DNA of 64,000 nt from Rhodospirillaceae bacterium (GTDB taxonomy: Bacteria; Pseudomonadota; Alphaproteobacteria; CACIAM-22H2). The stretch lies in NCBI GenBank assembly GCA_022843945.1, contig JALHMR010000002.1, positions 72,073 through 136,072 on the forward strand, read 5' to 3'. The position numbers and the translations under genes are program-made. This document shows, in pieces, positions 9,280 to 30,331 of this stretch. The notes beneath the pieces were generated by a model. It was not told the DNA's origin, made no database searches, and saw only the letters and a list, made by a program, of their open reading frames with translations. Position 1 is the stretch's first letter; each line of letters opens with the position of its first letter.

Positions 9280-11822
<2,543 letters not shown>

Positions 11823-25178: not shown

Positions 25179-26045
25179 ATGGAGTATTTCCTGCTTGGCC
25201 TGGTCGGCCTGCTGATCCTGATTGCGCTGTCCGGCGTCAAGATCGTTCCCCAGTCCCATGAATACGTGGTCGAGCAGTTCGGCAAATACACGGTGACCCT
25301 GCGGGCGGGCCTGAACTTCATCGTGCCGATCCTCAACCGGGTGGCTTCCAAGGTCAGCATCCTCGAGCGCCAGCTCGAGCCCCAGGAAATCAGCGTCATC
25401 ACCAAGGACAACGTCGAGATCCACCTGACCACAGCGGTCTTCTTCCGGGTGGTGGATGCGGCAAAGTCGGTCTATCGGATCAACGACATCGACCTGGCGG
25501 TGAAGACCACGGTGACCAGCATCGTGCGCTCGACCGGCGGCCAGATGGAGTTCGACGAGGTCCAGGCCAAGCGCGACTTCATCAACGAGAAGATCAAGGA
25601 CTCGCTGTCGGAGGCCTGCGCGGTGTGGGGCATCGAGATCACCCGCACCGAGGTGCTCGACGTCTCGGTCGACGCCGCGACGCGCACGGCGATGCAGCAG
25701 CAGCTCAATGCCGAGCGCGAGCGCCGGGCCGCGGTGACCAAGGCCGAAGGCGACCGCCAGGCACAGCAGCTCCATGCCGACGCCGAGCTCTACACCGCGC
25801 AGAAGAAGGCCGAGGCGCGGCGCGTGCTGGCCGATGCCGAGGCCTACGCCACGACCCAGGTCGGCGCGGCCATCCAGTCCAACGGCCAGGCGGCCATCGA
25901 CTTCGAGATCATGAAGCAGCAGATCGCCAGCGTTTCCGAGATCGCGCGCTCGCAGAACTCGAAGCTGATCGTCATCCCGACCGATATCACCAAGACGCTG
26001 GGCAGCCTCGCCGCCCTGCTCGAAGGCCTGCGGGCAACGAAATGA
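25179..26045 (+). CDS. SPFH/band-7 (stomatin/prohibitin-like) domain protein
   Basis: N-terminal membrane anchor, then the SPFH domain (IVPQSHEYVVEQFGKY...) and a coiled-coil tail. Confidence 0.85.
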   Translation: MEYFLLGLVGLLILIALSGVKIVPQSHEYVVEQFGKYTVTLRAGLNFIVPILNRVASKVSILERQLEPQEISVITKDNVEIHLTTAVFFRVVDAAKSVYRINDIDLAVKTTVTSIVRSTGGQMEFDEVQAKRDFINEKIKDSLSEACAVWGIEITRTEVLDVSVDAATRTAMQQQLNAERERRAAVTKAEGDRQAQQLHADAELYTAQKKAEARRVLADAEAYATTQVGAAIQSNGQAAIDFEIMKQQIASVSEIARSQNSKLIVIPTDITKTLGSLAALLEGLRATK

Positions 26046-26323
26046 CCGCCGCCCTCGACCTGGTGGCGGAGTATCCGGTCCTCTTCTGGGCGGCGCTCGG
26101 CGTGCTGCTGCTGGTGGCCGAGGTGCTGCTGGCTCCCGGCTTCTTCCTGTCCTTCGCCACGGCGGCCTTCCTGGTGGCGCTGGCCACGGCGCTCGGCCTG
26201 CTGCCGGTCGACTTCCTGTGGAAGGCCTTGATCTTCGCGGTGATCGGCGTGGCCACCATCCCGCTCTTCCGCAGCCTGCTGCGCCGGTATTTCGACCGCA
26301 CGCCGGATATCAATCAATACTAG
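26042..26323 (+). CDS. NfeD-like small membrane protein partnered with SPFH
   Basis: ATGA overlap with the SPFH stop. Two hydrophobic helices in 93 aa, the typical partner of SPFH operons. No OB-fold domain, so this is a short form. Confidence 0.5.
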   Translation: MTAALDLVAEYPVLFWAALGVLLLVAEVLLAPGFFLSFATAAFLVALATALGLLPVDFLWKALIFAVIGVATIPLFRSLLRRYFDRTPDINQY

Positions 26324-26379
26324 GCCCTGCGACGTTCTCTCAATGCACGACGAGAGAGTGAGATTAATTGTGAGACGGA

Positions 26380-27228
26380 ATGACGCTGATTGTCGCTCGA
26401 AAGACTAATGACGCGACATACATTGTCGGAGACACACTTTTTACCGGTGGAAAGGAAAACCTCCGCAAGCCCGACGTTGGTCTAAAAGTTTTTGCGATTG
26501 ATGCTGAAACGATGCTTTCTTACGCCGGTGTAGCACCAGAGACGGCACATTAAATATTCGTCTCGGTTGTCAGCGAGCTAAAACAAGGCTCTGACGTCCT
26601 TACTTTGTTGGATGCCGCTCAACGCAAGCTCGGTGCGCCTGCACTTGATCTTCTAGTCGTTCGTAGAGGCCAGATCACCGTCTTTAAGAATGGTCAGGTC
26701 TCGAAAGATCTGGCCGTCGGGTGGATTGGTGACCACGCGGCGTTCGAGGCATTTCAGGAGGCGATGGAAGGACAAACTGCCGGAGCCTTCTCATTTCATG
26801 CAGCAATGAGCGCAGTTGTTCGGAATCACAAGGTGGCTACAGTTGGAGGGCATGCTGTAACAGCCCGCTCTGGGTCATCCGGGGCCAGCTATGAATGTCT
26901 GATGGCGCTAACTTCTCCTCGCTATGTTCCTAAGCCGGAAGACTGGGAAACGGTTGATTGGGCTGATGCTGCGCGCGGAGGGTATGGCTTTACAACAATC
27001 ACGCCCCCTGAAAAGGGGATTTGCGGCTGGGGAATTTTCTATTTTCAAGCATTTAGGGGCATCTATTTTTCGGTGAATTTAAGAGAGAATAAATTCGAAC
27101 GGCTGACGGCAAGCGCAAGAACTGCCGAACAGTTTTGCGGTGTTTTAGAGCCGGCGTTAGGCTATCGGCCTCTGCACTGCGGGGATCTTTTTGCCGCAAC
27201 GGGCCCCGCAACTACCCCGCTTTCCTGA
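26380..27228 (+). pseudogene. HslV/proteasome-beta-like Ntn-hydrolase gene (Anbu/BPH-like, with a roughly 130-aa C-terminal extension) interrupted by an in-frame TAA at 26551-26553; lies in a low-GC islet
   Basis: A single frame runs 26380-27228. The N-terminus MTLIVARKTNDATYIVGDTLFTGGKEN...KVFAIDAETMLSYAGVAPETAH matches the HslV pattern TTIVSVRRNGHVVIAGDGQ...[22 protein letters not shown], including Thr1, Asp17 and Lys33(+2). After the TAA the frame continues with LAVGWIGDHAAFEAF, which corresponds to the HslV GSGG segment. The track lists only the downstream 207-aa piece (26605-27228). Local GC is visibly about 50% against roughly 68% in the flanks. Confidence 0.5.
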
Positions 27229-27892
27229 ACGTCAGGTTGAAGCGGCAGCGGCCGGTCAGCGGATCGCTGCCCTCGGCCAGCTTGTCGACGCCGTGGAAGG
27301 TGAGCCGCGCCGGGCCGCCCCAGACTGCCACGTCGCCGCTGGCCAAGGGGATGCGCTTCACCTTGTCCTTGCGCGTGGCCCCGCCCCACAGGAATTTCGC
27401 CGGCAGGCCGAGCGAGACCGAGACGATGGGCTGCGTAAAGTCGCGCTCGTTGCGGTCCTGGTGGAGCGTGAGGCGCGCGCCCGGTGTGTAGCGGTTGATC
27501 AGGCAGCCATCGGGCGCGAAACCGGGAAAGCCGGCCGCTTCGGCGGCGCGTGCGGCGAGGGTGCGGAAGGACTCAGGCATCGCCGGCCAGGGCCTGCCGA
27601 TTTCGGGATCGAGAGGGTCGTAGCGATAGCCGCTGCGGTCGGTGACCCAGCCAAGCGCGCCGGCATTGGTCATGGCCACGGACATGGTGTGCCCGCCGGG
27701 CACGATCATGTGGCGGAAGGGCGAGCCGGCGGCGACACCCTGCAGATCGATCACCAGCCGCGGCGTCTCGCTCGCGGCGAAGCCGCGCAGCAGCACGGCA
27801 CCGTCGGCCAGGGTTTCGCGGTCTGGTCTTTCAAACAATTCGTCATGCCGGCGAAAGCCGGCATCCAGGGGCGTGTGCGTGGTGCTTGCCAT
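27212..27892 (-). CDS. alkB: Alpha-ketoglutarate-dependent dioxygenase AlkB (DNA/RNA alkylation repair)
   Basis: Collinear with E. coli AlkB (SPFRHMIVPGGHTMSVAMTNAGALGW, LTLHQDRNE, IVSVSLGLPAKF, RYNLTFR). HxD...H iron-binding triad. The 3' end overlaps the islet pseudogene by 17 bp, convergently. Confidence 0.85.
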   Translation of the reverse strand: MASTTHTPLDAGFRRHDELFERPDRETLADGAVLLRGFAASETPRLVIDLQGVAAGSPFRHMIVPGGHTMSVAMTNAGALGWVTDRSGYRYDPLDPEIGRPWPAMPESFRTLAARAAEAAGFPGFAPDGCLINRYTPGARLTLHQDRNERDFTQPIVSVSLGLPAKFLWGGATRKDKVKRIPLASGDVAVWGGPARLTFHGVDKLAEGSDPLTGRCRFNLTFRKAG

Positions 27893-27996: not shown

Positions 27997-28341
27997 TCAG
28001 TTGACCTTACGAGTGTCGCCCTTGTTCGTATCGGTCTTGGCGCCGTCCTTCTTCACGCCGTCGGCTTTCACCGCCGGCGCCGTGCCGGTGGTGGTGCCCG
28101 GCGTGCCGGCGGCGGCCGGCGCCTTCGGGGGGACCTGCGCCTGCTGCTTGCTGTGGTCGATGGTCTGCGAAGATTTGCCCTTCGCCTTATCGGCCTTGTC
28201 CTTCTCGGTCTTGGCGGCGTCGGCCGGCGCGGCCTTGGCGGCCGGAGCCGGGGTGGCGGGAGTCGCCGGGATGGCCGTCTGCGCCATCGCCGGGGCGGCG
28301 AGCAGCAGGGCCAGGGCGGCGGCAGTCAAAGTCGTACGCAT
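27997..28341 (-). CDS. Small secreted Pro/Thr- and Lys/Ala-rich protein, paralog A (114 aa)
   Basis: Signal peptide (MRTTLTAAALALLLAAPAMA), a PATPATPAPAAKAAP stretch, the EKDKADKAK repeat, and a C-terminal ...TNKGDTRKVN. Start at the second Met (28341), which has a GAGGA RBS. Confidence 0.6.
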   Translation of the reverse strand: MRTTLTAAALALLLAAPAMAQTAIPATPATPAPAAKAAPADAAKTEKDKADKAKGKSSQTIDHSKQQAQVPPKAPAAAGTPGTTTGTAPAVKADGVKKDGAKTDTNKGDTRKVN

Positions 28342-28495
28342 GGGGTATGTCCTCATCGGTTGGGGAAGCCTTCAGGGGTTGTCCCTGCCATCCCACAACG
28401 CCACCCCGGACCCGCCTATTCGCGGAGAATTTTGCAGCCAAGGCTGGAATAAGCCCGGCGGGCAAAACGTGCGCGTGCCCCCGCGGACCAGCCGC

Positions 28496-28551: not shown

Positions 28552-28884
28552 TCAGTTCGTCTTGCGGGTGTTGTTCTGGTCCCGGACGTCGTTCGCGCGG
28601 TCCGGGCCGCGCGTTGCGCCCCCCTTGTTCGCGCGTTCGTTCGCCTTGTCGCCGGGGACGGTGGCCTGCTGCTTGGCCTTGTCGGCCTTCGCTTTATCGG
28701 CCTTCTGCTTGTTGGCCTTGTCCTTCTCGGCCTGGCTGACGGTCGCCGGGGCTTTGCCGGCGGCCGGCGGCGCGCTGCCCACCGGGGCCGGCGTGACGGG
28801 CGTCGGGCCCGGATTGGCCTGCTGGGCCATGGCCGGAGTGATAAGGGCGAACGCCAGGGTGGCGGCAACGAGAGTTTTACGCAT
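28552..28884 (-). CDS. Small secreted Pro/Thr- and Lys/Ala-rich protein, paralog B (110 aa)
   Basis: Signal peptide (MRKTLVAATLAFALITPAMA), a PGPTPVTPAPVGSAPP stretch, KADKAKADKAK, and a C-terminal ERANKGGATRGPDRANDVRDQNNTRKTN. GAGGAG RBS. Confidence 0.6.
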   Translation of the reverse strand: MRKTLVAATLAFALITPAMAQQANPGPTPVTPAPVGSAPPAAGKAPATVSQAEKDKANKQKADKAKADKAKQQATVPGDKANERANKGGATRGPDRANDVRDQNNTRKTN

Positions 28885-29919: not shown

Positions 29920-30186
29920 TCAGTTGGTCTTGCGCTGGTTGTTCATCTCCTTGACCTGGCCGGCGCGATCTTCGCCGCGCGTGGCGCCGCCCTTGTTGGC
30001 GCGCTCGTTGTCCTTGGCGGCCTTCGCGTTCTTGGCCTTTTCGGCCTTGGCCTTGTCAGCCTTCGCCTTGTCGGCCTGGGCCTTCTGCGCATTGCCGGTG
30101 GCCGGCGCGGGCGTGGGGGTCTGCTGGGCCAGGGCCGGCGTGGCCAGGATCAGCGCAAAGGCAGCGAGGACAGGGATCAGACGCAT
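29920..30186 (-). CDS. Small secreted Pro/Thr- and Lys/Ala-rich protein, paralog C (88 aa)
   Basis: Signal peptide (MRLIPVLAAFALILATPALA), a TPTPAPATG stretch, DKAKADKAKAEKAK, and a C-terminal ERANKGGATRGEDRAGQVKEMNNQRKTN. GGGAGA RBS. The track's longer N-terminus is read-through. Confidence 0.6.
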   Translation of the reverse strand: MRLIPVLAAFALILATPALAQQTPTPAPATGNAQKAQADKAKADKAKAEKAKNAKAAKDNERANKGGATRGEDRAGQVKEMNNQRKTN

Positions 30187-30331
30187 CGGATTCTCCCAAA
30201 AGTGACAGCCGCCCTCGAATCTGGGTGTCGGGCCGGTGCGGATCAAGCCCGGAGTACCGCGCCCCATCCTTGCCTTCCCGCCGCCGGAGGCGCACGCTGG
30301 GCGCCTTCCGTTCAGCCTCAGGAGTTCTCCG

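Follow-up and report, generated by a model that had tools for sequence, protein, structure and literature searches.

What does a short islet of low guanine-plus-cytosine (GC) content encode in the DNA of Rhodospirillaceae bacterium, and does the in-frame stop codon inside its single long frame mark a dead gene, a recoded gene or an error in the sequence? In this study, the question was addressed in a stretch of 64,000 nucleotides (nt), called the window throughout, which covers positions 72,073-136,072 of the forward strand of contig JALHMR010000002.1 (assembly GCA_022843945.1). The islet, of roughly 0.9 kb, carries a frame of 283 codons on the plus strand, which runs from an ATG at 26380 to a TGA at 27226-27228 and whose sole internal stop is a TAA at 26551-26553 (codon 58). 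A first-pass annotation, made from the letters alone, had described the frame at 26380-27228 as a proteasome/HslV-like gene cut after residue 57 by the TAA at 26551, and both the frame and its interruption were confirmed in the sequence. The analysis indicates that the islet is probably a single horizontally acquired gene for an N-terminal nucleophile (Ntn) hydrolase with an extra C-terminal domain, and that the TAA at codon 58 has very probably turned this gene into a pseudogene. The parts of the gene are as follows:

26380-26550, plus strand: N-terminal catalytic block (codons 1-57) with the putative nucleophile Thr2 after Met1, Asp18, Lys36 and Gly50, in register with HslV (4hnz)
26551-26553, plus strand: in-frame TAA (codon 58), the sole lesion of the frame, aligned with Arg57 of the intact relative P0001
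26554-26913, plus strand: rest of the Ntn core (codons 59-178), with predicted helices H1-H4, strands S5-S10 and a WIGD loop at the position of the HslV GSGG (AlphaFold2 model and Foldseek)
26914-27228, plus strand: linker and family-specific C-terminal domain (codons 179-282 and the TGA), as delimited in the AlphaFold2 model, with a tail that enters alkB

Family membership

A word-indexed search of 5.8 billion proteins with the conceptual protein (the frame translated through the TAA) returned a single relative, P0001, which is an intact protein of 279 amino acids (aa) encoded on a metagenomic contig of 1.15 kb. The two proteins could be aligned end to end with 39% identity over 99% of the query (database E 1.2e-58; BLASTP E 8e-74), which argues that the frame is not a product of chance. 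A profile hidden Markov model (HMM) of these two sequences was searched exhaustively against 1.84 billion cluster representatives (50% identity clusters) and yielded 578 representatives at E<=1e-3, 153 at E<=1e-10 and 33 at E<=1e-30, nearly all of which were 270-300 aa long and aligned from residue 1. The family divides into two or more subfamilies that share one architecture (alignments A2 and A5), and it extends beyond the Proteobacteria, for example to a metagenome-assembled genome of the Kiritimatiellales. A narrow pattern scan of species-representative genomes, based on two sequences, detected no relatives. Moreover, the conceptual protein matched no family of PADLOC-DB at E<=1, and hence no known defence system there, and its best match in PHROG was non-significant (E 0.27). 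Judged by sequence comparison, the window gene is a member of a real and sizeable family, unnamed and uncharacterised, that has no model in Pfam, NCBIfam or PADLOC.

Five longer and more distant relatives (P0091, P0097, P0105, P0106 and P0140; 428-486 aa) carry tetratricopeptide repeats (TPR) C-terminal to the core, with a TPR_1 match of E 4e-27 in P0105. This arrangement suggests that a protein-binding or sensor module may have been fused to the hydrolase.

Predicted fold and active site

Residue conservation was counted in a 158-row alignment of 157 family proteins and the window protein. Residue 2 was either Thr (121) or Ser (29) in all of the 150 rows counted; Asp18, which lies in a GD pair in the window, was conserved in 145 of 148, Lys36 in 149 of 150, Gly50 in 145 of 151, and Gly117 of the WIGD motif in 155 of 156. 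The N-terminus read M-T/S-L/F or V-T-L in 128 of 153 family proteins. When a profile of 36 members was compared with all PDB sequences, HslV ranked first (4hnz, E 1.3e-4), and 27 of the 30 matches were HslV or alpha or beta subunits of the 20S proteasome. The HslV alignment was in register from the N-terminus, pairing Thr2 with Thr1, Asp18 with Asp17, Lys36 with Lys33 and WIGD with IGSGG; the family also keeps an equivalent of the oxyanion-hole residue Gly47, which is Gly50 in the window protein. The residues named in the first-pass annotation (Thr1, Asp17 in GD, a Lys at about 33-35 and GWIGDH) were all present in this register, as T2, D18, K36 and WIGDH. Weak matches to PF00227 were found in 5 of the 36 members (best E 0.0013), and the window protein was below the threshold.

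The AlphaFold2 (AF2) model of the conceptual protein had a mean predicted local distance difference test (pLDDT) score of 90 and a predicted template-modelling (pTM) score of 0.87. Within residues 1-178, the order of the elements was strands S1-S4, two helices, S5-S8, two helices and S9-S10. A Foldseek search of the PDB, a check that the first-pass annotation had called for, gave more than 1,000 matches at E<=0.001, of which the top 50 were all 20S subunits; the best match was a 20S beta subunit (E 1.5e-8, probability 1.0), the alignments spanned about 195 columns at a root-mean-square deviation of 3.3-4 A, and the template-modelling scores to 20S beta subunits were 0.6-0.72 (target-normalised). 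The model is placed by this search inside the Ntn-hydrolase fold. Furthermore, a search of a viral structure library returned HslV/proteasome-like proteins of phages. Because the sequence profile, the predicted structure and the conservation pattern agree, the proteasome/HslV-type Ntn-hydrolase fold proposed at first reading is supported as the predicted fold of the family.

The C-terminal domain

The Ntn core ends at about residue 178 and is followed by an extra C-terminal part of about 100 aa, with a folded portion of about 75 aa. It had been reported at first as an extension of roughly 130 aa with no counterpart in HslV, BPH or Anbu; the absence of a known counterpart was upheld, and the length was reduced since the core reaches further than had been supposed. 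In the AF2 model, residues of about 186-262 make up an antiparallel meander of four strands and then a helix, and the domain modelled alone reached a pLDDT of 84.5 overall and above 95 in its core. The family is more strongly conserved here than anywhere else, and the motif W.TVDFG.AA.GGFGYTTITP...G.NGWG...FQG..G.FF of this stretch reads GGYGFTTITP...GWG..FQ in the window. No solved structure was matched by the domain, either by sequence or by fold (best Foldseek E 0.66), so that a known fold was ruled out among the solved structures.

Many members end 0-5 residues past a conserved ...CG.LG. The window protein reads CGDLF near this point (27181-27228), and its frame runs for 11 more codons, into the 3' end of alkB. 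The extended C-terminus probably reflects the place where the insertion abuts alkB, and the original end of the gene may have been replaced at the right-hand junction.

The stop codon and the state of the gene

The column of the TAA holds a sense codon in all 35 aligned homologues (AHRAI in P0001 against AH-stop-IF in the window). It is a variable column (R, A, S, E, K, Q, G and others), which is preceded by an almost invariant Ala and a largely conserved His, and TAA is one substitution away from CAA, AAA or GAA. At columns invariant in the eight closest relatives, the window protein had three private changes, and the relatives, treated by leave-one-out, had one to six; in the 36-sequence alignment, the window again had three in a range of 0-10. 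Apart from the stop, the frame shows no sign of decay, which argues that the nonsense mutation is very recent. A product that ends at residue 57 stops after S4 and cannot form the sandwich, and the gene is for this reason regarded as a pseudogene. The inactivating TAA is very probably a genuine and very recent nonsense mutation rather than an error.

Independent breaks were also found in three further copies of the family gene: L086 has a TAA at codon 21 (1021-1023), L099 has a frameshift near codon 119 (about 8351), and L103 (1-556) has both a frameshift and a premature stop. Recurrent inactivation of this kind may mean that the gene is costly or dispensable. Some short representatives at first looked like a further sign of frequent truncation. 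This was partly ruled out, as P0019 and P0032 come from intact genes whose starts were mis-called; P0018 and P0143 are truly broken.

Weighing of the explanations

Several points weigh against a horizontally acquired gene inactivated by a nonsense mutation. The conceptual protein has no Pfam or NCBIfam match. Neither an empty site nor a sense-codon allele was seen, as no close relative of the host locus turned up in the scans. One of the three private changes, which puts F in place of G at the conserved ...CG.LG C-terminus, could be a further and less obvious lesion, located at the right-hand junction. The strongest competing account attributes the TAA to an error of sequencing or assembly, in which case the gene is intact and encodes a functional proteasome-like hydrolase. 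The frame is otherwise flawless, with all of the conserved family residues present and no excess of substitutions at conserved columns, and one base change from CAA, AAA or GAA would suffice at a position where homologues carry R, E, K, Q, A or S. Stop-creating substitution errors are nevertheless rare in finished assemblies, and independent copies in other assemblies are also broken, which argues that genuine inactivation is common in the family; an error is considered improbable on these grounds.

The first-pass annotation had left a choice between recent inactivation and stop-codon suppression, and inactivation is favoured here; both read-through and a split gene are unlikely. Programmed read-through of the UAA would yield the full-length enzyme and perhaps keep the dose of a dangerous protease low. 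It would account for the 225 intact and apparently constrained codons downstream, and L086 likewise has an in-frame TAA in the N-terminal block. Yet the two TAA codons lie at different sites (codon 58 and codon 21) and neither is shared by any homologue, and L099 and L103 are broken by frameshifts instead. Moreover, no structured element follows the stop, since the 101 nt around and downstream of it folded no better than shuffled sequences (z -0.82), no Rfam match supports one, and no suppressor tRNA was found in the window. UAA is the most efficiently terminating stop codon of bacteria, and TAA terminates host genes. Suppression is accordingly given a very small probability. Smaller still is that of a split gene. 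The ORF listing (ORF, open reading frame) divided the frame into a 57-aa ATG ORF (26380-26553) and a 207-aa TTG ORF (26605-27228) in the same frame, and under this explanation both would be made, either to reassemble or to leave a C-terminal fragment that is functional alone. The existence of the TTG ORF and the conservation of the C-terminal domain, the highest in the family, speak for it; but no Shine-Dalgarno-like sequence precedes 26605, residues 59-75 would be lost, and the break falls inside the beta-sandwich core after S4, where it parts the nucleophile from the remaining active site. Furthermore, no family member is organised as two genes, and the short representatives that were checked were mis-called or broken.

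Two other candidates were rejected. Reassignment of TAA in the genetic code was ruled out because TAA is a normal terminator of the host, ending 3 of the 24 long host ORFs, and the long ORFs are intact under table 11. A non-coding RNA or regulatory structure in the islet was dismissed as well, since no fold was significant and Rfam gave no credible match there (19 bits, E 0.13, at most).

Composition and neighbours of the locus

GC content is 0.47-0.58 over about 26320-27100 and 0.67-0.73 in both flanks. The islet gene has a GC content of 0.52 and a third-position GC content (GC3) of 0.48, against a GC content of about 0.67 in host genes and a GC3 of 0.78-0.92 in 22 of 23 correctly framed long host ORFs (0.69 in the remaining one). 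Because these values are low and low-GC singletons of the same family recur in unrelated genomes, a foreign origin of the islet DNA is supported, and the horizontal acquisition deduced earlier from a GC content of about 50% is sustained. The opposite strand of the islet holds no ORF of more than 52 aa in the ORF listing. The features that surround the gene are as follows:

25179-26045, plus strand: SPFH/Band-7 host gene (PF01145, E 4.8e-31; GC3 0.92), upstream context outside the islet
26042-26323, plus strand: host gene for a full-length 93-aa membrane protein, an NfeD-type partner of SPFH, whose TAG stop forms the left edge of the islet
26324-26379, plus strand: AT-rich leader of 56 nt in the sequence between the host stop and the islet ATG
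27212-27892, minus strand: alkB, a host gene convergent with the islet gene (PF13532, E 1.6e-55; GC3 0.86)

The start of the membrane-protein gene overlaps the SPFH stop, and this pair is co-directional with the islet gene. The 93-aa protein has no Pfam match; its homologues bear the JGI name 'membrane protein implicated in regulation of membrane protease activity'. It was considered whether the insertion had truncated this gene, and this was ruled out because the homologues are all 91-93 aa long at 100% coverage. One homologue, P0158, is 98% identical, and another, P0168, lies on a 283-kb NCBI/JGI contig. These close relatives indicate that genomes near the host exist in public data, despite a scan of species-representative genomes with alkB in which the best identity was 70% and no close host relative appeared. 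A plasmid blastn search with the neighbourhood gave only matches of 66-71%, to the alkB and PNPOx genes. No promoter-like site was found in the 56-nt leader, and its RNA structure was not significant (z +1.37). On the right, the last five codons and stop of alkB overlap the last five codons and stop of the islet gene; the overlap of 17 bp given in the first-pass annotation is exact by coordinates.

Farther neighbours are a PNPOx-like gene, a LysR regulator, an Oxygenase-NA/2OG gene, an amidohydrolase and an isochorismatase. No AAA+ ATPase, integrase, transposase or tRNA gene was found in the window. Two small secreted Lys/Ala/Pro-rich paralogues (28552-28884 and 29920-30189, both on the minus strand) are interleaved with alkB and the Oxygenase-NA/2OG gene; both have a signal peptide ending in A(M/L)AQQ and a C-terminal NERANKGGATRG.DRA...N.RKTN (BLASTP E 1e-13). 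An ORF at 27997-28356 on the minus strand is similar in composition to this pair, at a similarity that is not significant, and none of the three small ORFs has a Pfam match.

Genomic behaviour of the relatives

The search for intact homologues and their gene neighbours, suggested in the first-pass annotation, recovered genes that were solitary and outside any Anbu-type operon. At every locus with enough flank, the gene stood alone among unrelated housekeeping genes, and the neighbours differed from one locus to the next:

L089: Macro, the gene, SBF transporter
L093: methyltransferase, the gene, DHDPS
L097/L101: GreA, the gene, DUF4410 and UbiA
L098: RecG, the gene, small ORFs
L099: amino-acid kinase and DUF6756, the gene, DUF4124

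Neither an AAA+ gene nor a conserved partner was present at any homologous locus examined, and the earlier statement that no hslU-type ATPase is adjacent was extended from the window to these loci. The transglutaminase, ATP-grasp and alpha-E genes of the Anbu type were likewise absent from the window and from all homologous loci examined. The GC content of the homologous gene was below that of its flanks at 13 of 14 other loci (9 of 10 distinct ones), for example 0.46 against 0.60 and 0.41 against 0.56; the low-GC patches of L089 and L093 span no more than about 1 kb and correspond to the gene alone, as in the window.

Contexts that hint at mobility or conflict are few. In L094, one copy lies beside a phage integrase at a prophage edge, and one further copy is near a resolvase and an SDH-type protease. 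At another locus (L082, 1696-5232), the homologue is directly upstream of genes for a 357-aa protein without a Pfam match, a DUF4062-SIR2_2 protein and a HEPN (RiboL-PSP) protein, a neighbourhood that looks like a defence island. A tblastn search with P0001 came back empty for 50,697 phage records and for 72,556 plasmid records. A scan of 2.9 million viral contigs gave one match, which adjoins an integrase at a prophage edge, and none for the second subfamily. The empty tblastn results and the single viral-contig match count against a phage or plasmid vehicle.

No target-site duplication or terminal repeat was found above chance in the window (p 0.41) or at seven other loci. At L089 (FLOH01000016.1), a 14-nt direct repeat, GGCC[C/A]TCAAATGAG, occurs at 9838-9851 and 11003-11016 and brackets the low-GC islet of about 1.1 kb (p about 0.025). 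With one copy the repeat overlaps the stop of the upstream Macro gene, and with the other copy it overlaps the point where the downstream SBF gene starts; it may be a target-site duplication.

Possible mechanism and role

In the intact relatives, methionine aminopeptidase would remove Met1 co-translationally and expose Thr1 (Ser1 in some members). Since the Thr or Ser directly follows Met1, this enzyme should suffice to expose the nucleophile, and no autocatalytic removal of a propeptide would be needed. A Thr directly after Met with no propeptide step has been described for all proteasome homologues except the beta subunits and HslV (PMC8665760). By analogy with the proteasome scheme, Thr1 would act as the nucleophile with Lys33 and Asp17 and with Gly47 in the oxyanion hole, and peptidase chemistry may be expected of the intact members. 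No dedicated AAA+ unfoldase would take part in their action. The C-terminal domain probably provides substrate recognition or contacts within an oligomer. The lack of an unfoldase partner and the added domain suggest that intact members may act on peptides, loosely folded proteins or specific protein targets, and so do the TPR repeats of the distant relatives; processive ATP-dependent degradation appears unlikely.

A more speculative and rather doubtful reading would give the family a role in genetic conflict. The gene would be a mobile single-gene enzyme whose C-terminal domain, which TPR repeats replace or follow in distant relatives, targets specific proteins; it would act either as a stand-alone abortive-infection or defence protease or as a connectase-like transpeptidase, and its recurrent early inactivation would reflect cost or toxicity to the host. 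Such a role is compatible with the patchy occurrence as low-GC singletons, with the TPR fusions, with the repeated inactivation and with the few copies in a defence-island or prophage-edge setting. If it were true, the window would capture a gene of this kind shortly after its host had disarmed it.

The practical consequence for the host genome is small. The fitting annotation is a pseudogene of a proteasome-like Ntn hydrolase, and neither two hypothetical proteins nor a recoding site. The protein is of a known kind and not a new system, and the interest is in the family rather than in the broken copy. To our knowledge, proteasome homologues outside HslV and the 20S proteasome are almost entirely uncharacterised; connectase, the sole divergent member studied in depth, has found biotechnological use. 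The locus points to a family that comprises several hundred sequence clusters or more, in which the Thr1/Asp17/Lys33 active site is complete and for which neither a propeptide nor an unfoldase appears to be needed. Moreover, the family carries a domain unmatched in solved structures, travels as a naked single gene and is repeatedly found broken. Because a complete active site, an unmatched domain, single-gene travel and recurrent breakage are combined in it, the intact relatives P0001, P0002 and P0009 are good targets for work on structure and activity.

Comparison with known systems

HslV is the best match of the family profile among solved structures, and Thr1, Asp17, Lys33 and the oxyanion Gly are common to both, as is a glycine loop at the GSGG position (WIGD in the window protein). 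In contrast to HslV, which has about 175 aa, the conceptual window protein has 282 aa and an extra C-terminal domain; no hslU is adjacent or nearby in the window; and the protein, with no NCBIfam or Pfam match, is encoded by a foreign low-GC singleton and not by a gene of a housekeeping operon. The window gene is not regarded as HslV because HslU is lacking, the extra domain is present and no NCBIfam model is matched. The 20S beta subunits (PF00227, MEROPS T1) are the best match by fold, whereas the identity to them is only 10-19%. Unlike these subunits, the window protein has no propeptide (the Thr is directly after Met1) and no alpha-subunit partner, carries the additional C-terminal domain and is below the Pfam threshold.

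Anbu and BPH are also stand-alone proteasome-like proteins of bacteria; they lack an AAA+ partner, and their Thr comes immediately after Met (PMC8665760, PMC5777263). Neither of them ranked above HslV or the 20S subunits in the PDB profile search, and neither has a C-terminal domain of four strands and a helix. The conserved Anbu operon (transglutaminase, ATP-grasp and alpha-E) is absent at the window and at the other loci examined, so that the window gene is not an Anbu. Connectase resembles the family in that a proteasome fold with added elements works outside the degradation barrel (PMC7980362). It is an archaeal protein ligase, from which it is evident that divergent members of the proteasome fold can have non-degradative chemistry (PMC7980362). 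It differs from the window family in being archaeal, in lacking helices H1 and H2 and in a helical insertion between S3 and S4, and it was not ranked, by sequence or by fold, among the matches listed.

Finally, Fuchs, Alva and Lupas (2021) have outlined 22 further clusters of proteasome homologues, including the rare proteobacterial clusters RPC and DPH of group I (HslV/BPH-like), which have no propeptide (PMC8665760). A C-terminal domain matching no known structure was noted in RPC and apparently in DPH, and the cluster representatives are WP_140207863 (RPC) and WP_074989469.1 (DPH) (PMC8665760). RPC was described without helix H2, whereas the AF2 model of the window protein has helices at 53-66 and 73-84 between S4 and S5; this difference may speak against RPC but not against DPH, although the prediction methods differ in the two cases. 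The window family, in contrast to RPC and DPH, also occurs outside the Proteobacteria. No experimental characterisation of these two clusters was found in the literature searched. Compared by description, RPC and DPH are the best literature match for the family, which probably corresponds to them and with which they share a propeptide-less core, a C-terminal domain without a structural match, and rarity.

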